From Candidatus Omnitrophota bacterium (GTDB lineage Bacteria > Omnitrophota > Gorgyraeia > Pluralincolimonadales > Pluralincolimonadaceae): a stretch of DNA of 64,000 nucleotides. The translations under genes and the position numbers were made by a program. Position 1 is the first letter of the stretch, and every line of letters begins with the position of its first letter. Of this stretch, positions 46,213 to 62,415 are shown piece by piece. The notes beneath the pieces were generated by a model. That model ran no database searches. It saw only the letters and a program-made list of their open reading frames with translations, and was not told where the DNA came from. The stretch lies in assembly GCA_028716565.1 (NCBI GenBank), contig JAQUPL010000001.1, forward strand, positions 280,479-344,478, read 5' to 3'.

Positions 46213-47382
46213 ATGGAAAAAAAGAACGTACAGGAAAGGCTTGACAGGATACGCGCTGAATTGGCGATCTTCTATGAGATCGGCAACGCGATGCGCTCTA
46301 CCCTCAATCTTGAGGAGATCCTCTTTATCATATTGACCGGAGTGACCTCCCACGCGGGCCTCGGCTTCAACAGGGCCATGCTCTTCCTTGTGAACGAGCA
46401 GGAGAACACTCTCGAGGGAAAGATGGGTTTAGGCCCCCATTCCGGCGAAGAGGCCGGCCTCATCTGGAGCAGGATATCTTCCCAGCAGATGTCGCTCGAA
46501 GACCTCATATCGGCCTATACCTTCTATAAAAAGGGCGGGTCAGACCTCGACAAGGCAGTAAGGGGCATAAAGATCCCCTTACGCGAGGATGCCGGAGTTC
46601 TTGCCGTGACCGTTCTTGAAGGTATGAGCATGGAGGTAACCACGGACGAGGCTCGTCATAAGACAGCCAACGACCCTGTCCTGCAATTCTTAAGGACCGA
46701 GTATTTCGTGACCGTCCCGCTCAAGGCAAAGGATAAAGTTGTAGGAGTGATACTGGCGGACAACCTATTCACGAAGAAACCCATACTCAAGGACGACATA
46801 AGGACTTTGACGATGTTCGCGAACCATGCCGGCCTCGCGATCGAAAATTCACGGCTTTATGAGCAAACGGTTTACGAATCCAATACCGATACTCTCACGC
46901 GGCTCTGGAACCACGGATATTTCCAATTCCTCCTGACCGAGGAACTGAAGAAGGCTTACGAGAGCAAGTCCCCCCTCTCCATGGTCATGTTCGACATAGA
47001 TAATTTCAAGAACTATAACGACACGATGGGGCACCAGATGGGAGACCAGATCCTCCGTGAGGTAGCGAGGATATTAAAGACCGTCTGCGACGGGAAGGGT
47101 TTTGTGGCACGCTACGGCGGCGAGGAGTTCGCCGTGATACTTCCCAACCAGGGTAAAAACCCCGCTTATACTATCGCGGAAAACCTCAGGATGGCGATAG
47201 AAAACTTCGAGTTTAAAGGACAGCAAGTCCAACCTACCAAGAACCTTACCATAAGCGCGGGCCTCTCTACCTACCCAGAAGACGCGCCCGATAAAGAAAA
47301 GCTGATCTACTTAGCTGATATGGCGCTGTATGAAGCGAAGAGGACCGGCAAAAACAAAGTCTGCGCCTATAGGTCCAGATGA
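46213..47382 (+). CDS. GAF-GGDEF diguanylate cyclase
   Basis: 389 aa; N-terminal GAF domain, C-terminal GGDEF domain with RYGGEEF motif. Confidence 0.85.
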   Translation: MEKKNVQERLDRIRAELAIFYEIGNAMRSTLNLEEILFIILTGVTSHAGLGFNRAMLFLVNEQENTLEGKMGLGPHSGEEAGLIWSRISSQQMSLEDLISAYTFYKKGGSDLDKAVRGIKIPLREDAGVLAVTVLEGMSMEVTTDEARHKTANDPVLQFLRTEYFVTVPLKAKDKVVGVILADNLFTKKPILKDDIRTLTMFANHAGLAIENSRLYEQTVYESNTDTLTRLWNHGYFQFLLTEELKKAYESKSPLSMVMFDIDNFKNYNDTMGHQMGDQILREVARILKTVCDGKGFVARYGGEEFAVILPNQGKNPAYTIAENLRMAIENFEFKGQQVQPTKNLTISAGLSTYPEDAPDKEKLIYLADMALYEAKRTGKNKVCAYRSR

Positions 47383-51059: not shown

Positions 51060-52844
51060 TTATTCGAACGATAGCGTTATTTTGAAGGCCTTCGTCCCTT
51101 TCCCCAAGTCTTTCGGAAAAGGCGGAAAAGGAGTCGAATCTTTGACGCTTTTTATGGCCAAGTCGGCCAACGCCGGCTCTGCTTTATTTATTATTACCGG
51201 CTCGCCGAAAAGCGAACCGTCATCGAAAAGGGAAAAAGCCACTACGGCGTTTCCGGTAAGCTTCTCCTGCGGCATCGACCGCAGCGCGGTATTAAGGATC
51301 TTCGTCCTCACCATCTGGTTATACAGGTCGAGGTTGACTATCCTGTCCCGGACACTTCCATAGTAGTCGGAATAGGATGAATCTTTCATATTCGGGATCG
51401 GCTGCGACGTATCTCCCGATATAATCGTGGGCGTAAGGAAAATGACCAACTCGGTCTTTTTTGTCTCGTCTACGACATTCCTGAAAGCCGCGCCGAAAAA
51501 GGGAATATCGCCGAGGATCGGAAGCTTGTTGACTGTCCTTATTTTGGTATCTTCTATGAGCCCTCCCATCACGATAGTCACACCGTCCTTTACCACTACG
51601 CTCGTCTCGGCCTCGGAGGTCTTTACTATAGGCACGCCGTCCGGGGACGCCGTGGTCTTGATCCTGCTGCCGACCGAACTGACCACAGGCCTTATCTTCA
51701 TCGATACATAGCCGTCTTTGTTCACGGACGGGGTCACGTAAAGCTGTATACCGACATCTACGAAATTTACCGACTCCGCGGTGGTTACCGCTCCGGCAGC
51801 CGGCGTCGTGGTAGTACCGGTAATATAGGCCTCTTTCGTGCCCACCATTATCTTTGCCTCCTGGCCGTCGAGCGCGGTAATGCGCGGGCTGGAGATGATC
51901 TTGGTATTCCCTACCAACTTAAGGGCCTGGATGACTGAATTGAAGGTATTGCCGTCCCCGAAGCCCGTGCTTATCGTCAAGGTGCCGCCTGAGGTCAGGT
52001 TGGCGGTAAGCTTCTGGTCGACAGTGACTTTCTTTAAGATCGTCTGCCAATCTATCCCGGTGGTCAACTTGTCATCTAACTCCACCTGGACTATCTTGGC
52101 ATCGATGAGGACTTGCCGGGTCTTTTCATCAAAAGCATTTATTATCCTCTCGATGTCCGCCACCTTCCCGGGCAGGTCGGTCACAACCACGGTATTCGTG
52201 CGTTCGTCAAACCGGACCGAACCCAGTCCTTTCGTGATCATATCCTGTATCTTGGGGTTCAATTTATCGCTCTTAGCGTAATCCAGCGTGAAGACCTTCG
52301 TGACCGTAGGGGAATCGAGCGAGGCGACCATCTCCTTCATCTGCTCGAGCCTTCCGGCGCTATCCATCAATATAAGGGAGTTCGAACCTTCATCCACTAT
52401 GACCCTCCCTATGGTCGTCTTGACCTGCGTGACGGCTTTAGCCACTTCTACCGCCTTCGCGTAATTAAGCTTGATAGTGACCAATTCTTTCTTATCCTTG
52501 AAATGCTCTCCGTACATCGCCTCGTATTCCCGGCCGGTCATGACGTTCACGATATCATTGCGCACGTCGTAGGCCAGGTCGTTCGAGAGGAGTATTATCT
52601 CGAAGGCGTCCCAGACATCGACATCTTTCAGGAAGATAGTGACCTTGCCGGTCACGCTCTTCGACGCGATGATGTTCATGCCGGTCCTCTGCGATATTAT
52701 CTTAAGGGTGTCGATTATGTCTATCCCCTTCAGGTCGAGCGTGATCTTCTGCGCGGAGATAGGGGACTGGGCGAAGGAACCGGCCGCGAAGGAGATGAAA
52801 ATAAAGCATGCCAGAAACCCCGTGAGATACCTTGAAAACTTCAT
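51060..52844 (-). CDS. Secretin (GspD/PilQ family) with a C-terminal TonB-C-like extension
   Basis: Signal peptide, N0/N1-like domains, secretin core (VLIDAKIVQVELDDK...GGLIEDTKIRTVNKLPILGDIPFFGAAF). The extra roughly 80 C-terminal aa match the TonB_C pattern (G.AVVAFSLFDDGSL...V...A.P.LADLAIKSV...FPPFP). Confidence 0.8.
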   Translation of the reverse strand: MKFSRYLTGFLACFIFISFAAGSFAQSPISAQKITLDLKGIDIIDTLKIISQRTGMNIIASKSVTGKVTIFLKDVDVWDAFEIILLSNDLAYDVRNDIVNVMTGREYEAMYGEHFKDKKELVTIKLNYAKAVEVAKAVTQVKTTIGRVIVDEGSNSLILMDSAGRLEQMKEMVASLDSPTVTKVFTLDYAKSDKLNPKIQDMITKGLGSVRFDERTNTVVVTDLPGKVADIERIINAFDEKTRQVLIDAKIVQVELDDKLTTGIDWQTILKKVTVDQKLTANLTSGGTLTISTGFGDGNTFNSVIQALKLVGNTKIISSPRITALDGQEAKIMVGTKEAYITGTTTTPAAGAVTTAESVNFVDVGIQLYVTPSVNKDGYVSMKIRPVVSSVGSRIKTTASPDGVPIVKTSEAETSVVVKDGVTIVMGGLIEDTKIRTVNKLPILGDIPFFGAAFRNVVDETKKTELVIFLTPTIISGDTSQPIPNMKDSSYSDYYGSVRDRIVNLDLYNQMVRTKILNTALRSMPQEKLTGNAVVAFSLFDDGSLFGEPVIINKAEPALADLAIKSVKDSTPFPPFPKDLGKGTKAFKITLSFE

Positions 52845-52871
52845 ATTGACCCTGTCCATGGCATTCTCCTC

Positions 52872-53546
52872 TTATAAGGTAAGTTCGAGCACTTCACCGT
52901 TTATCGACAAAATTACCTTGTCCGACTGTATATCCTCAACCCTTATATTGTCCAACGAATCGCCCTTGTAAAGGAAATATGATTTCTTGTTCTTCCCGTC
53001 CTCCAGGATCACCTGGGGTTTATCACCGGCTATTATCCCCTTCAGCGTAAAATCCTTTAACTTGTCGAAGGAGGCCTGGGCAGGCCTTGCCGCGGGAGCG
53101 GCCTGGACCGGGGAGGCCTTAAAAAGATCTTTCGACGCCAGCAGCGCCGGATTATCCTGGATCTCAACGGATACGGAAGATGGATCTGCCTGGACCGGGG
53201 AGGCAGATCCTATTTGCGGTTCCTGGCGCACGGCTGCCCCCTTGGCGGGCTCGGGTATATAGGCCGGACGTTTCAGGTTGAAACTTATGACGTCGATCAA
53301 AAGGACGGCGGCGATGACAATAAGGACGGTTATCAGGGTTATGTTTATAAATTTGACGTGATCTCCGCTTTTAAGCTGCGGTGGCGCAGTCCTGCGGTCC
53401 TGACCGGCAGGAGCCGGACCGGCCTCACGCTCGCCCGGGACGGAACTCTCCCTCTCCTGGAGCGGAGCGGACCTATTCTTAGGTTTCTTTTCGCCGCGGA
53501 TGAGCCTCAAAAGTTTTTCTTCCGGGCTTGTGAATTCCTCGGGCAT
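52872..53546 (-). CDS. Secretin-interacting inner-membrane protein, PilP/GspC-like
   Basis: Likely start MPEEFTSPEEK. Cytoplasmic N-terminus, one TM helix, Pro/Ala-rich linker, and a C-terminal beta-domain pattern (L.G.I.G....VILEDG...Y.LYKGD.L....V.DI....V.L) as in PilP / the GspC HR domain. Lies directly upstream of the secretin. Confidence 0.5.
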   Translation of the reverse strand: MPEEFTSPEEKLLRLIRGEKKPKNRSAPLQERESSVPGEREAGPAPAGQDRRTAPPQLKSGDHVKFINITLITVLIVIAAVLLIDVISFNLKRPAYIPEPAKGAAVRQEPQIGSASPVQADPSSVSVEIQDNPALLASKDLFKASPVQAAPAARPAQASFDKLKDFTLKGIIAGDKPQVILEDGKNKKSYFLYKGDSLDNIRVEDIQSDKVILSINGEVLELTL

Positions 53547-54361
53547 TAACTTACCTCCCTGCCTATCACAGCCTGGACGATTTCGCGGTCTATGGCGGTC
53601 CTCTCGTCCATTATGACGGTCTCCACGCAATCGTGGCAGAGCAAGGCTATCTTCCTCGGATATCCCTGCGTATGTTCATATATATATTTTATCGCGTCGT
53701 CCGTAAAGAGCGGGGCCTGGGCCGAATAACCCGCCTGTTTCAGCCTGAACTCTATCATCTGTTTTGTCTCAGCCTCGTCCAGGGGATTTATCAGGTATTT
53801 AAGGGCGATCCTGTCCATGAAATTCTTTATCTTCCTTATCCTGGGCAGCAGCTCGACCTGGCCCAGTATGACAAGCTGCAGGAGCTTGTATTCATTGGTC
53901 TCGTAGTTCAATAATATCCTAAGGAGTTCGAGTTGGTTGGCGTCAAGCTTTTGGCCTTCGTCTATGAGGAGGATTATCGTCTTGTTCTCGTCGACGCCTT
54001 TTTGGAAGAGGTATTTTTCTATGGCATCCTTGAATTCAAGAGTCGACCTGAATGCCGGTTTGATCCCGAACATCTTCGCGAGGTTTGCGAGGAATTGGAA
54101 TTCCGTCTTATAACTGGGGTCGAGGATCATGTGGAATATGAAATTATCGTCCCCGTGGAATGATTGCAACAATGTCCGCGAGAGCGTCGTCTTTCCCGTC
54201 CCTACGTCGCCCAGGACCACGCTCAGGCCGCGCCTCAACCTTATCGTGATCTCCAGCCTGTTGAGGGCCGATTCATGCGATTGGGAACGGAAGAAAAAGG
54301 CGGGGTCCGGACTTGTCGAAAACGGTTCTTTCTCAAGGGCAAGCGCTTTATAATAGCTCAA
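53546..54361 (-). CDS. exeA: AAA+ ATPase ExeA/GspA (MshM-like)
   Basis: 271 aa; Walker A GDVGTGKTT, Walker B LLIDEGQ; ExeA-family length and layout. Confidence 0.7.
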   Translation of the reverse strand: MSYYKALALEKEPFSTSPDPAFFFRSQSHESALNRLEITIRLRRGLSVVLGDVGTGKTTLSRTLLQSFHGDDNFIFHMILDPSYKTEFQFLANLAKMFGIKPAFRSTLEFKDAIEKYLFQKGVDENKTIILLIDEGQKLDANQLELLRILLNYETNEYKLLQLVILGQVELLPRIRKIKNFMDRIALKYLINPLDEAETKQMIEFRLKQAGYSAQAPLFTDDAIKYIYEHTQGYPRKIALLCHDCVETVIMDERTAIDREIVQAVIGREVS

Positions 54362-54674: not shown

Positions 54675-55208
54675 TTAATGGATAGCTATTTTGGAAATTA
54701 CGATACCGCACCTGAGGATGTTAGAGCGGGCCTGTTTCGGATTCAGCGATAATCTATCGATAGCCAGCAGATGAGCGGAATTCTGCACTTTTCGCATAAA
54801 ATCTGATATCTGTATCATGTCCCCTTCCAGCTCGAGGCCGGCGTAAAACTTCCTGTAAAGGCTGAATTTTTTCGTGGGCAGGGGTTTTATCTCGTTTATG
54901 TGGACTCCGGTCGTATTCGCGAGGGATTCGATCTCGGTGAGGAATTTAGCCATCTCCTCTTCCGCCGAACCGGCCATCCTGAGGGCCGACGCGGCTTTTT
55001 CATAATCGCCGGTTATCGGCCCTGTCCTGCCGATGAGGCGCTCGCTCTTTTCCAGTTTGAGGGTGTCCGCGGCTATCTCATCGTTAAGCCGCTTCCATTT
55101 TGTCGAGACCGGTTTTAAGATGAACGCCTGGGCGGCCCATGCGACTATCACCGCCAACGTAAGATAAAAAAGCTTGCTCTCCCGGCCGCTGAGGTTTAAT
55201 AATGTCAT
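54675..55208 (-). CDS. PilO / GspM-like bitopic inner-membrane assembly protein
   Basis: 177 aa; short cytoplasmic N-terminus, TM helix, coiled coil, and a C-terminal ferredoxin-like region, as in PilO/GspM. Confidence 0.55.
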   Translation of the reverse strand: MTLLNLSGRESKLFYLTLAVIVAWAAQAFILKPVSTKWKRLNDEIAADTLKLEKSERLIGRTGPITGDYEKAASALRMAGSAEEEMAKFLTEIESLANTTGVHINEIKPLPTKKFSLYRKFYAGLELEGDMIQISDFMRKVQNSAHLLAIDRLSLNPKQARSNILRCGIVISKIAIH

Positions 55209-56641: not shown

Positions 56642-57613
56642 CTATTCCTCGTTCCAGTAGAGAACGCTTCCGCCCGTTACCGAGATGACACAGGTAACGG
56701 TTTTTACCGCCCTGCCGCCCGAAGCGTAACCTTTCGATATCACCCTGTAATAATTGGAACCGCAAGATACGAGCGCCTTGTTCGCTTCCGTCAGCGACGT
56801 AATATTCGCGCCTGACAGGAAATCGATGAAGTCATTCTTGTCGACGAAATGCGTATTATCCGGCGTATCCGGGCCGATCCTGGCGGCAATTATAGTCTCG
56901 GCCTCGGGTTGCGAAAAACCCAGCGCCATAAGTACAGGCAACGGGGCTGTATTCACATTTATCTGGCAGCCCGTGCCGGTTATCGGGTATACAGTGATAT
57001 ATCCCTTTATCTTATCGAAGAGCTCGCGGTTTACGCCCTTGACCAACAAGACCTCATCTATCGAGTCAAAAGGGAGATCCTTTTTCTTGTATCCCTCTCC
57101 AGTGTAATCATATTCATTATATTCCTGGGAACCGTCCTTGCGGATATCGTCTTCGTCGCGCCAATCTTCTATACTAGCCGCGATCTCGCCGGCGTCTCCT
57201 GTAAGGTCAAAATACTCGATAAGCCGCTTGATGACATCCCCGGGCGCGTTATTGATATTTATACGCGCTTCCTCGTCCTGGACGCCGTAAAAGACCCGTT
57301 TATCGGAAGAGGGATAACTTACGGTAAAGGTACCGGCCTCCCCTATCTTGATATCCTTAAAAAGCGGGTTGGCTTCCTCATCATTGCATGACCATTGCTC
57401 GTTCAAGGTATCCATAGTGTGGTTCTTCTTGCTGAGGATGACGGCCGCCGCGCGTTCTACACCGGCCTCGGAAAGGTACAGGGCAGCCGCGCTGTCCCTG
57501 TTAAAACCGGTAAGTTTCAGTTCAAGCCCCATCCTGCCGCCTATCCCAATTGAGAGTATAGCCAAAATCGCCAAAATCCACAAGGTTATAATAAGGATGG
57601 CGCCCTTCTTCAA
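56642..57613 (-). CDS. gspK: Minor pseudopilin GspK-like
   Basis: 323 aa; N-terminal hydrophobic ILIITLWILAILAIL, characteristic INVNTAP motif; size typical of GspK. Confidence 0.7.
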   Translation of the reverse strand: MKKGAILIITLWILAILAILSIGIGGRMGLELKLTGFNRDSAAALYLSEAGVERAAAVILSKKNHTMDTLNEQWSCNDEEANPLFKDIKIGEAGTFTVSYPSSDKRVFYGVQDEEARININNAPGDVIKRLIEYFDLTGDAGEIAASIEDWRDEDDIRKDGSQEYNEYDYTGEGYKKKDLPFDSIDEVLLVKGVNRELFDKIKGYITVYPITGTGCQINVNTAPLPVLMALGFSQPEAETIIAARIGPDTPDNTHFVDKNDFIDFLSGANITSLTEANKALVSCGSNYYRVISKGYASGGRAVKTVTCVISVTGGSVLYWNEE

Positions 57614-58200
57614 GGAATAATCACCTCTTCGTCTTTCAGTATTCCTGTAGGTATCAATACCGTCCGGGTGACCGTAAGCGGTTCCGCCGAACCATCGGGG
57701 GTATACGTCAATAACACCTTGACGCCGAACGGAACTTCTTTATAATCTTCCTGCCAGGAATCACCCCATACAGGTCTTCCGTCTTTTTTGTATAAATACT
57801 GGAATTTAATGACTGACATCCCGGACGCCAACCGGGACCTCACCCCGGGGCCGCCCGAGGCGTTATCCTTATAGGTCTGCAATACCCTGTATACCGCTTT
57901 CTCCCCTTCGTCAAACTCGTATGTCACCCTGAATAGGCCGTTAACCGCCCTGCAGAAAGAGAGGGAATCCGCGCTCCCGGAAAATACTATCACCTGAGAA
58001 TTGACGGCGTTCTTTAATTCGCGCGAGAGCATGCCCAAAAGATACCGGGCCTCCTGCCTGCTGCGGTAACTCCCCTCACCCTTCTGCCAGGCGCAGATGC
58101 CCACATTAAAGGAAAGATATATCGAGATAGAGACGATGGAGAATATCAGCATCGCTATCAATAATTCGATAAATGTGAACCCTGCGCGGCACTTTCTCAT
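57610..58200 (-). CDS. gspJ: Minor pseudopilin GspJ-like (prepilin N-terminus)
   Basis: 196 aa; prepilin-type cleavage/methylation motif AGFTFIELLIAM. Confidence 0.6.
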   Translation of the reverse strand: MRKCRAGFTFIELLIAMLIFSIVSISIYLSFNVGICAWQKGEGSYRSRQEARYLLGMLSRELKNAVNSQVIVFSGSADSLSFCRAVNGLFRVTYEFDEGEKAVYRVLQTYKDNASGGPGVRSRLASGMSVIKFQYLYKKDGRPVWGDSWQEDYKEVPFGVKVLLTYTPDGSAEPLTVTRTVLIPTGILKDEEVIIP

Positions 58201-58595
58201 TCTACGCCTGCCTGGCCCTTAAGGTAAGTGCCTATTTCGATCTTCTCGTTGCGTTCCTTATTCGTCCAGGATATTATGGTAATGACCTGGTTAAGAGTAT
58301 CCCCGTCACTTATCTTCGTTATCTTTGTTTCCAGGCTGTACGGCGTCCCGGATATCTGGGTGGATGACTCGGACGCGGCGACACCCCCGGCCAATTCCTC
58401 CTCTATCTCGAGGCCGGCAATCTTGTCCTGCACCAAGAGCGACGCCTTAAAATACTCCTGCGCTATCTTCGAGGCGCGCAGGGATGATGTGAAAGAGCGC
58501 AATATGACCGCCAGGCCTATCGCGATGACGGCGATGCTCGCCACCACCTCGAGGAGGAGGTATCCCTTCCTATTCCGTCTGCTTGACATTGACAT
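58197..58595 (-). CDS. gspI: Minor pseudopilin GspI-like
   Basis: 132 aa; variant prepilin motif KGYLLLEVV (G-Y-L-L-L-E with Glu at +5). Confidence 0.55.
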   Translation of the reverse strand: MSMSSRRNRKGYLLLEVVASIAVIAIGLAVILRSFTSSLRASKIAQEYFKASLLVQDKIAGLEIEEELAGGVAASESSTQISGTPYSLETKITKISDGDTLNQVITIISWTNKERNEKIEIGTYLKGQAGVE

Positions 58596-59055
58596 AGCCT
58601 GTCCCCGGGTCTACCGATACCGAATATTTCCCGCCGTATTTCCCCTTGATCTCGAAATCAGCCCTGTCCGACGTCCCGTCCGGATAGAAGACTATCTTGG
58701 CCTTGCCCTCCTTCAGGTCAATCAGGACGGAATCGGGTATCGACTTCACCTTCCCGGTCACCCACTGGTCGACGTCAACCCCGTAAGGGTCTCGGAATAC
58801 GAGGTGGTCTTCTGTCAGGACGCGTTTCTGCGGCAGGTCGAAATCCACGCTCGCCTCGGCGCTACCGCTTATCGCCTTCGCCTGGGCATACATCGCCAGG
58901 GAAGTAAGATCAGAGACGAAATTCTGAAGGACCAGGGAATCGAACGATCTCCTGAACTGCGGGACCGCGACTGCCGCCAGAATAGCCAGGAGCGTTATAA
59001 TGAATATCAATTCTATGAACGTAAACCCTCGGTGGCAGCGGCGTTGAAACGCCAT
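58570..59055 (-). CDS. gspH: Pseudopilin GspH-like
   Basis: 161 aa; prepilin motif RGFTFIELIFIITLLAILAAVAVP. Confidence 0.6.
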   Translation of the reverse strand: MAFQRRCHRGFTFIELIFIITLLAILAAVAVPQFRRSFDSLVLQNFVSDLTSLAMYAQAKAISGSAEASVDFDLPQKRVLTEDHLVFRDPYGVDVDQWVTGKVKSIPDSVLIDLKEGKAKIVFYPDGTSDRADFEIKGKYGGKYSVSVDPGTGYVNVKQTE

Positions 59056-59065
59056 GGATAATTGC

Positions 59066-59473
59066 CTACTGCTGCCCGGAGACGGGTTGTTTATTGGAGA
59101 TGGTGTCGCTGCCCGCGACGCCGCTCCTGCCGTAACTCATCAAGTCGTAATCTTTCTTGTCGGTGCTAGGCTTATAGACGTAGTCGCGGCCCCACGGGTC
59201 AACCGGCCTCTTCTTAAGATATGGGCCGTTCCACGATTTCAGGTCTCCCGGTTTGACGAGCAGGTCGTCTAATTTATCGGGATATTGCCCGTTATCAAGT
59301 TCATACATGTCCAGGGCCGTGGCTATACTAGTATTTATATCCGACATGGCGACCTGCCTCCTGGCGTCCTCCGACCTCCCGACGAACCTCGGCAATACCA
59401 TCGACGCCAAGATCCCGATTATCACCACTACAAGCAATATCTCTACGAAAGTGAACCCGCTCCTCGCGCGCAT
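59066..59473 (-). CDS. gspG: Major pseudopilin GspG
   Basis: 135 aa; SGFTFVEILLVVVIIGILA and the GspG-specific DPWG..Y.Y...G....YDL.SYG.DG motif. Confidence 0.85.
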   Translation of the reverse strand: MRARSGFTFVEILLVVVIIGILASMVLPRFVGRSEDARRQVAMSDINTSIATALDMYELDNGQYPDKLDDLLVKPGDLKSWNGPYLKKRPVDPWGRDYVYKPSTDKKDYDLMSYGRSGVAGSDTISNKQPVSGQQ

Positions 59474-59483
59474 GATCCCTCCT

Positions 59484-60692
59484 TTATTTTACCATAAGGT
59501 TCAATTGGAATATCGGCAGGAGCATCGCGACCACTATAAAAGCCACGACCGCTCCCATGCCCAGTATCATAAGAGGCTCTATAAGCGACGTCATTATCTT
59601 AATAAGCCTGTCGGCGTAATGTTCATACGAATCCCCGATGCGGTAAAGCGAAACCTCGAGCGAGCCGCCCTCCTCCCCGACGGATATCATGTTCTTCACG
59701 AAGGCCGGGAAGTGCGGGCTGTTCTTTATCGCCCCGGAGAATGAGAGGCCATCTTTTATCGACTTCCCTATCCTCTCGAACTCTTGCCTCAGCACCTCGT
59801 TGGTCGCTGTCGCGGATATTACCTCGATAGAATGGAGTATGGGGACACCGTTATCGAGAAGAGTGGCGAGCGATTTGCAGAGCCTTCCCACCTCGACCTT
59901 TTTGAGGAAATCCCCGAGAAGCGGCAGGCCCAGTAAAAACCTGTCGACCTGTGTCTTTCCCTGCTTTGTGGAGTTTACCCTTACGACCAGGAAAAATATG
60001 ATAGCGGCAGCCAGGACCATCAGCCACCAGAATTGAGCGAAGAAATCGCTTATCCCTACGAGTATCCTTGTGGGGAGCGGAAGGGACTGCCCGAATTCGG
60101 AAAATATCACCGTCAACCGCGGGATGACGAACGACAGGAGGACAAAGACCGTCAAGACACCGACCGAGAGGACGAGCGCCGGATAGGCCATGGCAGCCTG
60201 GATCTTGCTCTTTACGTCCTCCTCTTTCTCGTAATGGTCGGAGAGCCTCTTGAGGATCTTCTCCAACACGCCTCCCACCTCGCCCGCGCTTATCATGCTC
60301 ACGAAAAAATCGGAGAATATCCTGGGATGCTTGGCGAACGCGCCTGAGAGAGAGGCGCCGGCCTTCACTTGGACTATCACATCCTGCAGAGCGGACTTTA
60401 ACGCCTTGTTCTCTATCTGGTCGGATAGGACGCCGAGGGCGTTTATCAGGGTAAGGCCGGAACCCAAAAGGTCGGAGAACTGCTGCGTGAAAACAGCCAT
60501 ATCCCTGGTGCCGACGCGGTTCATGAACGCAAACCCTGCCTCTCCGCCGCGCGCCTCCTGCCTATCCACCCTGAGGGGATACAATCCCATCTGCGATAAT
60601 TTGGAGACGGCTATATATTCGGTGTCGGCCTCTATATAGCCTTCCGCGACGTCGCCGATCCCCTTCTTAGCCCTGTAAAAAAATCTCGCCAA
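59484..60692 (-). CDS. gspF: Inner-membrane platform protein GspF/PilC family
   Basis: 402 aa; two T2SSF repeats with three TM helices. Confidence 0.85.
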   Translation of the reverse strand: MARFFYRAKKGIGDVAEGYIEADTEYIAVSKLSQMGLYPLRVDRQEARGGEAGFAFMNRVGTRDMAVFTQQFSDLLGSGLTLINALGVLSDQIENKALKSALQDVIVQVKAGASLSGAFAKHPRIFSDFFVSMISAGEVGGVLEKILKRLSDHYEKEEDVKSKIQAAMAYPALVLSVGVLTVFVLLSFVIPRLTVIFSEFGQSLPLPTRILVGISDFFAQFWWLMVLAAAIIFFLVVRVNSTKQGKTQVDRFLLGLPLLGDFLKKVEVGRLCKSLATLLDNGVPILHSIEVISATATNEVLRQEFERIGKSIKDGLSFSGAIKNSPHFPAFVKNMISVGEEGGSLEVSLYRIGDSYEHYADRLIKIMTSLIEPLMILGMGAVVAFIVVAMLLPIFQLNLMVK

Positions 60693-60711
60693 TCGAAACT
60701 CCGTCCCCGTG

Positions 60712-62415
60712 TTACATATTCGGGATATCTTCCTTCGGCGTTACCCTCATTACTTCGCCGGCCGTCGTCAAACCCTTTAAGATCTTCTCGATGCCCGCGT
60801 TGCGCAGCGTCCTCATCCCGAGGGCTACGGCCTTTCTTCCTATCTGGTCGGCCGATTTGTGGTTGAGCACCATCTCGCGTATCTCCTCGTTCAATACGAG
60901 GAACTCATGTATGGCGGTCCTTCCGCGGTAGCCGGTAAATTTGCACGCCTCGCATCCTTTCCCCTCGTATATCTCGGCGCCCTTCGGCGCGTCCTTCATG
61001 CCGAGCTCCTGCAGGACCACTTTCGCGTCTTTCGCCGGCCGTTTGCATTTCGGGCAGATAAGGCGGACTAGCCTCTGGGCGATGACGCACTCGACCGACG
61101 AAGCCACGAGATACGGCTCGATGCCCATATCAAGGAGTCGCGTCGTCGCGCCGGCCGCGTCGTTGGTGTGCAAGGTCGAAAAGACGAGATGTCCGGTGAG
61201 GGCTACCCTTATCGCTATCTCCGCGGTCTCGACGTCCCTTATCTCTCCCACCATCATCACGTCCGGGTCGTGCCTGAGCATCGACCTCAGCCCCTTGGCG
61301 AAAGTCAGTTCGACCTTATTATGGACCTGGATCTGCGTGATCCCCTTAAGGTGGTATTCTATAGGGTCTTCGATAGTAAGTATCTTAAGTTCCCTGTTAT
61401 TGATCTTCGATAGGCAGGCGTAAAGCGTCGTCGTCTTCCCTGAACCGGTCGGGCCGGTCAAAAGTATTATGCCGTGCGGCTTTTTTATCATCTCGTTCAG
61501 TATCTTGAGGTCGAAATCGGCCAAGCCAAGGTCCTCAAGGCTGTAAAGCATCTTCGCGAAGAGAAGCCTTATGCCTACGCTTTCGCCGTAAGGCGTCGGC
61601 AATATCGAAACCCTCAGATCGAGGTCCTCCTGGCCTACTTTCACCTTCATCCTGCCGTCCTGGGGCAGGCGGTGTTCGGCGATATTGAGGTTCGACATTA
61701 TCTTGATCCTGGAGATTATCGCGGACTGGAAATACTTGATATTCGGGGGGATCGCGGCGTCGTATAAAACGCCGTCTATCCTGTAGCGGACCTTCAGTTC
61801 GTCCTCGTAAGGCTCTATATGGATGTCGGTCGCCCGGTCGTGGTAGGCCTGCTGGATTATCTGGTTCACGAATTTTATTATAGAGGCGTCCTCGACAAGC
61901 TCCTCGGCCTCCTCGACGGCAAGGGACGGCCCGCCTGAGGCGGCGGTCTCTGCCATGATGCTTTCGATCGTGTCGGCGCCGATGCCGTAATACTTCTTGA
62001 CAGCTTCTATGATATCCTTCTCACCGCCGAGAAGCGGCCTGACTTCGCAGCCTAAAATGAGTTTTATGTCGTCGAGGGTGTGCAGGTCGAGCGGGTCGGT
62101 CACGACTATGGAGAGGATGCCGTCCTTCTCTTCCAGGGGCATCAACTTATAATGGACCGCGAACCTCGCCGGGACTTTCTCCGCTACCGGTTTGGGTATA
62201 TTCCTTTCCTTGAGCTTTACGTAGGGTATGCCGAGCTGCCTGGAGAGGACGGTCAGGACCTTCTCCTCGGCGGCGAAACCGAGGTCGGCGATTATCTGGC
62301 AAATAAATTTCCCGGACTTCTTCTGTTCATTAAGGCACATCTCCAGCTGTTCCGGAGTGATCACCTTATCGATTATCAGCATCTCGCCTATGAGAATGCC
62401 GTCCTTAATAGCCAT
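60712..62415 (-). CDS. gspE: Secretion ATPase GspE (T2SSE_N domain, ATPase, tetracysteine Zn site)
   Basis: 567 aa; N-terminal MshEN/T2SSE_N-like domain, Walker A GPTGSGKTTT, Asp and His boxes, Cys-x2-Cys...Cys-x2-Cys zinc motif. Confidence 0.9.
   Translation of the reverse strand: MAIKDGILIGEMLIIDKVITPEQLEMCLNEQKKSGKFICQIIADLGFAAEEKVLTVLSRQLGIPYVKLKERNIPKPVAEKVPARFAVHYKLMPLEEKDGILSIVVTDPLDLHTLDDIKLILGCEVRPLLGGEKDIIEAVKKYYGIGADTIESIMAETAASGGPSLAVEEAEELVEDASIIKFVNQIIQQAYHDRATDIHIEPYEDELKVRYRIDGVLYDAAIPPNIKYFQSAIISRIKIMSNLNIAEHRLPQDGRMKVKVGQEDLDLRVSILPTPYGESVGIRLLFAKMLYSLEDLGLADFDLKILNEMIKKPHGIILLTGPTGSGKTTTLYACLSKINNRELKILTIEDPIEYHLKGITQIQVHNKVELTFAKGLRSMLRHDPDVMMVGEIRDVETAEIAIRVALTGHLVFSTLHTNDAAGATTRLLDMGIEPYLVASSVECVIAQRLVRLICPKCKRPAKDAKVVLQELGMKDAPKGAEIYEGKGCEACKFTGYRGRTAIHEFLVLNEEIREMVLNHKSADQIGRKAVALGMRTLRNAGIEKILKGLTTAGEVMRVTPKEDIPNM

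Follow-up and report, generated by a model that had tools for sequence, protein, structure and literature searches.

A TonB_C/TolA-III-type domain at the C-terminus of an Omnitrophota secretin and its possible role as a docking module

Identity of the secretin tail

Secretins need help in reaching the outer membrane, inserting into it and staying there, and this help comes from a pilotin together with the S-domain, from AMIN/LysM anchors or from GspA-GspB. The DNA analysed here (the window, 64,000 nucleotides of contig JAQUPL010000001.1, positions 280,479 to 344,478, from the Candidatus Omnitrophota bacterium assembly GCA_028716565.1) encodes a secretin as the final gene of an operon that resembles those of type II secretion systems (T2SS) and type IV pili (T4P). 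The question raised by this locus is what the C-terminal block of the protein, called the tail below, is and what it might do for the secretin. A sequence-only reading of the window had proposed that the last residues follow the pattern of the TonB C-terminal domain and that they replace the usual S-domain of GspD.

Our answer to the first part is that the tail is almost certainly a domain of the TonB_C/TolA-III type. The window protein alone remained below threshold, with 16-19.2 bits (E 0.0016-0.017) against TonB_C (PF03544, cutoff 24.6 bits), 13-17 bits against TonB_2 (PF13103, cutoff 22 bits) and 16.4 bits against TIGR01352 (cutoff 27.1 bits), and these matches span nearly the whole of the profiles. 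At the family level, however, the matches were strong: 47 of 51 non-redundant homologous tails matched TonB_C at E <= 0.01 (best 2.5e-9), 45 of the 51 matched TonB_2 (best 1.5e-10), and precomputed PF03544/PF13103 annotations are already present on many of the homologues. A profile of the tail searched against the PDB found the TonB C-terminal domain structures 5lw8/6sly of H. pylori at E = 2.4e-7. The tail alignment gave a confident model in AlphaFold2 (AF2), with a predicted local distance difference test score (pLDDT) of 92.1 and an alpha-beta-beta-alpha-beta topology, and the best 19 matches of Foldseek in the PDB were all C-terminal domains of TonB, TolA, HasB or FusB. The predicted fold can be superposed on solved TonB/TolA C-terminal domains and is structurally nearest to the TolA-III/TonB_2 flavour with a long N-terminal helix. 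It is the family-level profile matches and the structural evidence that settle the identity of the tail, and on both the TonB pattern that had been read from the sequence was borne out. The C-terminal domains of Omnitrophota's own TonB proteins (described below) likewise lie under the TonB_C cutoff, at 23.3 and 16.6 bits, so the weak score of the window protein reflects the divergence of the lineage.

The interval first assigned to the domain, 51060-51300 (residues 520-599 and the stop codon), lies within the tail, but the domain starts about 75 nucleotides earlier (Table 1). It consists of a helix (residues 496-527), two strands (536-544 and 550-556), a second helix (562-574), a loop (575-582) and a last strand (590-598).

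The protein that carries this domain belongs to the secretin superfamily, its barrel scoring above the PF00263 threshold (27.5 bits) and its Secretin_N region above the corresponding cutoff (28.2 bits), preceded by a Sec signal peptide. No lipobox was recognised in this signal peptide, in which, on our own reading, Cys 18 stands within an F-L-A-C context that fits poorly. The N0 region forms a beta-alpha-beta-beta-alpha-beta-beta unit in the AF2 model. An NCBI entry from a 'Candidatus Omnitrophica' metagenome-assembled genome matches the protein with 100% identity, and the names of its database relatives are inconsistent ('TonB family protein', 'MshL', 'GspD', 'PilQ', 'secretin N-terminal domain-containing protein').

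The idea that the tail stands in for the S-domain of GspD holds for its position only. The core reaches neither the GspD nor the PilQ cutoff and scores higher on PilQ, with 263.4 bits on TIGR02515 (the best of the NCBIfam secretin subfamilies; cutoff 284.35 bits) and 238 bits on the GspD profile TIGR02517 (cutoff 351.35 bits). Solved GspD, PilQ and RcpA structures match the secretin down to E = 9.6e-36, and their alignments stop at residues 480-498. Solved PilQ chains end at this point, with no S-domain there, and solved GspD chains run on for 40-60 unaligned residues, which are the S-domain. Neither the full-length model nor the alignments to solved secretins revealed a helix-turn-helix S-domain in the window secretin, and a Pfam scan detected no AMIN domain. 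Judged from these alignments, the tail is better seen as an addition to a PilQ/GspD-like core than as a replacement of the S-domain. We also considered the last barrel strand (...ELVIFLTPTII), whose motif resembles the TonB box I[VL]VTP of Omnitrophota receptors, as a TonB box for the tail, and rejected it given that this strand belongs to the core that aligns with all solved secretins.

Spread, conservation and origin of the tail

The full-length alignment of the secretin was used to scan one genome per species, which gave 80 loci; their titles are nearly all Omnitrophota, and the few that bear other submitter labels are unconfirmed. The tail hidden Markov model (HMM) found the domain at the secretin C-terminus in 78 of these 80 species-level loci. 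In a protein search, the full-length query returned 117 full-length relatives, every one of which keeps the C-terminal block; a query with the tail only, limited in its reach by the word index, returned two close fragments. Clustering of the 80 loci produced an apparent excess of 'secretin-like' open reading frames (ORFs), which was single-linkage noise, and a second secretin core was present in no locus. The two secretins without a tail (L075:9752-11473 and L077:9668-11383) are found in an unchanged operon context, and that of L075 ends before the tail domain. Between signal peptide and N0, each of the two carries some 60-80 additional residues of acidic, low-complexity sequence rich in E, A and V, which the window protein does not have.

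An exhaustive profile search with the tail through 1.84 billion representative proteins gave 1,094 matches at E <= 1e-10, of which we classified the best 150. Thirty-nine of these 150 have a secretin core, 37 with a single tail, one with two (P0198) and one with three (P0123); if the tail-less secretins are included, the number of tails per secretin ranges from 0 to 3. The others are 45 tandem arrays without secretin core, 31 proteins of TonB length, 30 fragments and 5 other long proteins. P0198 is a secretin of the CpaC/RcpA type with a T2SS-T3SS_pil_N N-terminus; its gene belongs to a Tad operon, where it is flanked by those for RcpC and a CpaE/CpaF-like ATPase. The same architecture is seen in its close relatives P0281-P0284, of which P0284, the one named member, is from Omnitrophota. 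Of the other CpaC secretins among the matches listed, none carried TonB_C, and those that are named come from other phyla. The tail-bearing CpaC-type secretins have no N0/STN domain. On the evidence of these architectures, two secretin classes in Omnitrophota carry the tail as an add-on.

In P0198 (L081:1851-5126) a unit of about 190 residues, made of TonB_C and a K/E-rich segment, is repeated exactly in tandem. After it come a long coiled-coil-like region, again K/E-rich, and a TPR-like end. So exact a repeat may have arisen by recent duplication or may be an artefact of the assembly. Tandem arrays of TonB_C/TonB_2-type domains were seen in P0124 (2378 residues), P0178 (1954 residues), P0125, P0126, P0133 and P0135 and in loci L082 and L083, the latter with two tandem-array proteins side by side, adjoining ankyrin-repeat giants. 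Pfam counts 3-5 copies in such proteins, and the longest have up to 17-27 matched stretches. P0125 is from Omnitrophota, and the genomic contexts of P0126 and P0133 are unrelated to secretion genes.

Within the tail, the invariant or nearly invariant positions are Y, G, F, G, P, L, PF..P and F, and the conserved residues lie mostly in the core of the fold (Y513, G536, F542, G548, L564 and F592). Two further motifs, probably both on the surface, are an (A/S)PFPPFP loop (residues 575-582) that precedes the last strand and also occurs in Omnitrophota TonB, and a G-E-P motif in strand 2 (E in 80% and P in 98%), which was found in secretin tails only and is absent from TonB. In its charge the tail is inconsistent, with isoelectric points (pI) of 4.6-9.9 and net charges from -7 to +5. 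When the window secretin is compared with distant relatives, identity is highest in N0 (65%), followed by the core (51%), N1-N3 (49%), the tail (35%) and the linker (15%). The spacing between the core and tail HMM matches varies across relatives from 8 to 76 residues (median 36), the window clade having about 15 disordered residues. With this pattern the tail is a constrained domain on a free tether.

One possibility that these data address is that the tail is an artefact or a relic, either a mis-assembled or read-through fusion with a TonB gene or a functionless, decaying remnant. The sub-threshold Pfam scores of the window protein and the loss of the tail in two lineages could be read in this way. 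However, the tail is in frame in the 78 independent assemblies out of 80, and none of the 117 full-length homologues is without it. Conservation at its core positions is strong, its fold prediction is confident and a second secretin class has it as well. In-frame conservation on this scale, together with the confident fold, refutes this explanation for practical purposes, and we leave it a negligible chance.

The same tail HMM also matched standalone proteins of about 240 residues in three loci (L020, L031 and L065; E = 1e-19 to 1e-23). These have an N-terminal transmembrane (TM) helix with S-x3-H and are encoded directly downstream of a TonB-dependent receptor with Plug and beta-barrel, and they are the real TonB proteins of Omnitrophota. 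Their C-terminal domains are 53-65% identical among themselves and 25-30% identical to the secretin tails, with which the A.PFP.FP loop is common. As far as sequence comparison can tell, the tail therefore seems to have arisen long ago by duplication of the TonB-type domain of this same lineage. The receptors in these pairs are BtuB-like, with the TonB box I[VL]VTP (L020:11246-14037, L031:18511-21236 and L065:15697-18529, receptor then TonB); the pair lies near cobalamin-related genes, about 9 kb downstream of the secretin, and this order recurs in three distant genomes. An ORF adjoining the pair has a IQVYTGNGKGKTTAA motif that we read by eye as CobO-like.

The window secretin differs from these TonB proteins at the other end. 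It begins with a cleavable signal peptide and continues with N0, the motor-binding TM helix of TonB with its S-x3-H (SHLS) was not found, and neither was a Pro-rich or helical periplasmic spacer of the TonB type, the tail being preceded by the secretin core and a 15-residue linker. Because motor-binding helix and spacer are both missing, the secretin is, by its predicted layout, not an energy transducer of the TonB type. With a signal peptide in place of the motor-binding helix, the tail itself would not transduce energy.

Possible roles of the tail

In the known topology of secretins the core terminates outside the barrel, on the side of the outer membrane that faces the periplasm. With this topology, an assembled 12-15-mer would display a crown of tails on tethers of 8-76 residues. 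We tentatively favour, at somewhat less than even odds, a role of the tail as a passive docking or anchoring adaptor of the secretin. Each subunit would be tied by its tail to another component of the envelope, and this would help the assembly, stability or positioning of the secretin, making the tail a functional analogue of the S-domain/pilotin pair, of the AMIN domains of PilQ or of the GspA-GspB factors. The contact would preferably be made by beta-strand augmentation with a short strand of the partner, similar to a TonB box or to the N-terminus of TolB, as might be expected from the biochemistry of the family. That CpaC/RcpA-type Tad secretins have the same domain, and that copy number runs from none to three, suggests a generic, secretin-linked role. 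A passive adaptor is favoured since the documented activity of the TolA/TonB C-terminal fold is the binding of protein partners by strand addition (PMC12204202). From this biochemistry the role in strand exchange, anchoring or partner binding that the sequence-only reading had suggested would be plausible.

Three observations weigh against docking by a passive adaptor. The full-length AF2 model (pLDDT 79.6) leaves the arrangement of the domains undefined, with a predicted template modelling score (pTM) of 0.48, and for this reason it is our inference where the tail lies with respect to the barrel. The tail is dispensable in at least some backgrounds, given that L075 and L077 keep the operon without it. 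Finally, variable copy number and tandem arrays of 2-5 or more copies are more typical of domains that bind polymers such as peptidoglycan than of those that recognise a single specific peptide.

This last point leads to a different reading, in which the ligand of the tail is peptidoglycan or some other polymer of the envelope, and the secretin is thereby held to the sacculus. The tail would then do in cis the work that the AMIN domains of PilQ, the LysM proteins TsaP and FimV or the periplasmic domain of ExeA/GspA perform for other secretins, and Kaserer et al. reportedly proposed in 2008 that the TonB C-terminus binds peptidoglycan. Copy numbers of this kind in secretins and arrays are typical of binders that act through avidity, and the tethers could, at their range of lengths, bridge the outer membrane and the wall. 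The operon's own ATPase of the ExeA/GspA/MshM type appears to consist of the cytoplasmic part only, with no TM or periplasmic peptidoglycan-binding part detectable by Pfam, and no AMIN domain was detected in the secretin; the presence of the same add-on on two secretin classes with different N-domains also argues for a generic envelope ligand. However, what is established for TolA/TonB C-terminal domains is strand addition and not peptidoglycan binding (PMC12204202), the tether of the window clade is short, and charge and pI are uninformative, giving no consistent signal in either direction. We consider anchoring to the cell wall unlikely, although the likeliest of the alternatives.

The tail occupies the very place of the S-domain, which also permits a reading in which it works within the secretin itself. 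In cryo-EM structures of GspD the S-domain packs on the neighbouring subunit, and TonB C-terminal domains form strand-exchanged dimers; by the same token the tail could grip the linker or barrel wall of the neighbouring subunit, so that an outer ring stabilises the multimer or lets it pilot itself. No pilotin-like gene was found in the operon, and indeed no conserved neighbouring partner or pilotin gene was found across the 80 loci, where no gene of the operon follows the secretin and what lies beyond it differs from locus to locus. A strand for such a grip could be supplied by a linker motif, E(I/L)KPKEGAVAKMVKGKIVTEKI, that is conserved in the majority clade of relatives at 45-50% identity (P0034-P0122). 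Linker motif and tail are, however, uncoupled: the window clade has the tail without the motif, and the tail-less L075 secretin has kept the motif. We thus rejected their pairing as an obligatory mechanism. The linker is otherwise unconserved, variable in length and disordered in the model, the three tandem tails of P0123 fit a fixed ring geometry poorly, and the tail-less relatives presumably still assemble. A staple between subunits is on balance rather improbable, and docking on another envelope component remains our preferred reading.

The operon and its relation to known systems

The secretin is preceded by genes for GspE with an MshEN domain, GspF, GspG, three pseudopilins (one of them GspJ-like), GspK, a PilM-PilN fusion, PilO, a MerR-type protein, an AAA_22 ATPase and a GspC-like protein, in this order. 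The operon thus has the GspC, GspE, GspF, GspG and minor pseudopilin genes, GspK among them, that accompany a T2SS secretin, with PilM/N/O-type proteins in place of GspL/M. Coordinates and supporting matches are given in Table 1.

Table 1. Features of the secretin gene and of its surroundings in the window, with the matches or models on which they rest
Feature	Coordinates	Strand	Basis and occurrence
Secretin gene, 599 residues and stop	51060..52859	-	Final gene of the T2SS/T4P-like operon
Signal peptide, about residues 1-30 (...AAGSFA|QSP)	52770..52859	-	Read from sequence; AF2 helix at residues 2-28
N0/STN-like domain, residues 38-108	52536..52748	-	PF07660 STN 22.4 bits and PF21305 GspD N0 21.4 bits, both sub-threshold
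Two Secretin_N (N1/N3-like) domains, residues 125-243	52131..52487	-	PF03958 in two stretches, E = 3.4e-24, 85.3 bits; AF2
Secretin core/beta-barrel, residues 249-480	51420..52115	-	PF00263 at residues 313-480, 161.5 bits, E = 1.8e-47
Flexible linker, residues 481-495	51375..51419	-	pLDDT < 50 in the full-length model
TolA-III/TonB_C-type C-terminal domain, residues 496-599 (104 residues)	51063..51374	-	Profiles, AF2, Foldseek
GspC/PilP-like protein, TM helix and HR domain	52872..53630	-	PF11356 T2SSC E = 7e-8, weak T2SSB
ExeA/GspA/MshM-like AAA_22 ATPase, 271 residues	53546..54361	-	PF13401 E = 1.3e-18; in 68 of 80 loci
MerR-family helix-turn-helix protein, 81 residues	54358..54603	-	PF13411 E = 7.6e-12; same position (between PilO and AAA_22) in 59 of 80 loci
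PilO-like gene	54675..55208	-	Pfam PF04350/PF11104/PF05137 set for PilO and PilM-PilN; in 48 of 80 loci
PilM-PilN fusion, 477 residues	55205..56638	-	PilM_2 at residues 12-210, PilN at residues 395-469; in 45 of 80 loci
GspK, GspJ, two further pseudopilins, GspG, GspF, GspE	56642..62415	-	Pfam T2SSK_1st/T2SSK, T2SSJ, N_methyl, T2SSG, T2SSF, T2SSE, MshEN
GspE with N-terminal MshEN domain (last named in the row above)	60712..62415	-	
ORF ending in GGDEF-type sequence	46213..47382	+	Read from translation

A GspC/PilP-like gene was found upstream of the secretin in 74 of the 80 loci. The neighbour had first been called PilP/GspC-like, and the PF11356 match supports a GspC-like protein. The AAA_22 ATPase gene overlaps the annotated TTG start of this ORF, and translation probably begins instead at the ATG at 53549 (MPEEFTSPEEKLLRLIRG...), opening a conserved SPEEKLLRLIRG motif. 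The small DNA-binding protein of the MerR type is unusual as a fixed part of a T2SS/T4P-like operon.

Some 4 kb past the secretin lies the ORF whose end we read as a GGDEF-type sequence (...RYGGEEF...), and according to one report the MshEN domain found in GspE binds cyclic di-GMP (PMC12448109). The secretion or pilus machine may, from its predicted domains, be under cyclic di-GMP control.

When compared with the T2SS secretins of the GspD type (PulD/PulS and GspD/AspS), the window protein shares the core, N0 and other N-domains and the neighbouring GspC-like, E, F, G, J and K genes, and it too has an extra C-terminal module after the last barrel strand. It differs in that this module is not an S-domain but a globular domain of about 100 residues on a flexible tether, that no pilotin gene lies nearby and that the score is below the GspD cutoff. 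The T4P secretin PilQ is its best-scoring subfamily, and with PilQ it shares the PilM/PilN/PilO homologues in the operon and an accessory domain whose copy number varies by lineage, as is the case with the N-terminal, peptidoglycan-binding AMIN domains. The accessory domain is, however, C-terminal and of another fold, and is not known as a peptidoglycan binder; AMIN itself was not detected, and the PilQ cutoff is not reached either. In TonB and TolA (PF03544, PF13103 and PF06519 for the C-terminal domains) the domain belongs to a protein with an inner-membrane anchor bearing the SHLS motif and a spacer across the periplasm, whereas here it is at the C-terminus of an outer-membrane secretin, and would not be pulled by ExbBD or TolQR; the secretin tails also have a conserved G-E-P motif of their own.

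Two systems are already known in which periplasmic proteins described as 'TonB-like' are needed for secretin assembly or T4P formation, GspA-GspB (ExeA-ExeB) and PocAB-TonB3 of P. aeruginosa. The former resembles the window operon in that an ExeA/MshM-like ATPase and a GspB/C-like protein adjoin the secretin, although the ExeA-like protein here has no periplasmic part that Pfam could detect. Both systems have their TonB-like element as a protein of its own in the inner membrane, whereas here a true TonB_C fold is covalently part of the secretin. One proposal has the TonB-like ExeB in contact with N0 of the secretin ExeD (PMC4098917). Another has PilQ as the target of PocAB-TonB3, the N0 of PilQ being similar to the signalling domain of TonB-dependent receptors (PMC5285504). 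Both proposals are unproven.

These proposals are among the reasons to consider a coupling device, in which the tail binds to the C-terminal domain of a TonB- or TolA-type transducer of the same cell, or competes for its partners, and so links the secretin to a motor driven by the proton motive force. The tail is indeed paralogous to the Omnitrophota TonB domain, with the A.PFP.FP loop in common, and the N0/STN domain of the secretin is of the kind found in TonB-dependent receptors. Against this, the identity of tail and TonB is low, the G-E-P motif is confined to the tails, and the CpaC-type secretins have the tail but not the N0/STN domain. The tail HMM found no other domain of the TonB/TolA type among the ORFs of the window (ExbB/ExbD and TolQ/TolR were not searched for). 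Such a coupling is in our view highly improbable. A broader version, which we would call improbable, is that contact between TonB_C and secretin is a general and ancient feature of T2SS/T4P assembly or gating that has become hard-wired in Omnitrophota, where the tail may reach the Ton/Tol motor by pairing with TonB. By the logic of domain fusion the Omnitrophota proteins speak, indirectly, for TonB_C and secretins being functionally linked. N0 is, however, unlikely to be the universal target of TonB_C, since the tail-bearing CpaC-type secretins are without it.

Omnitrophota are tiny and often host-dependent or predatory, and T2SS-like loci flank their giant adhesion and degradation genes (10.1101/2023.11.21.568195). 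We did not find an earlier description of a secretin-TonB_C fusion in the searchable literature. A 2025 survey of TolA/TonB evolution does not mention one, and a 2026 Omnitrophota preprint lists 'TonB-domain content' beside T2SS and giant-gene loci without linking it to the secretin. Both parts, secretin and TonB_C, are known, and the architecture is visible in databases yet uninterpreted. It appears that nearly the whole phylum Omnitrophota uses a secretin add-on different from those listed at the outset, and on two secretin classes. If the tail is truly an anchoring or docking module, it would be a new class among the strategies of secretin assembly. It would also offer a concrete way of testing whether TonB-like proteins are linked to secretins, which has long been suspected but is unproven.

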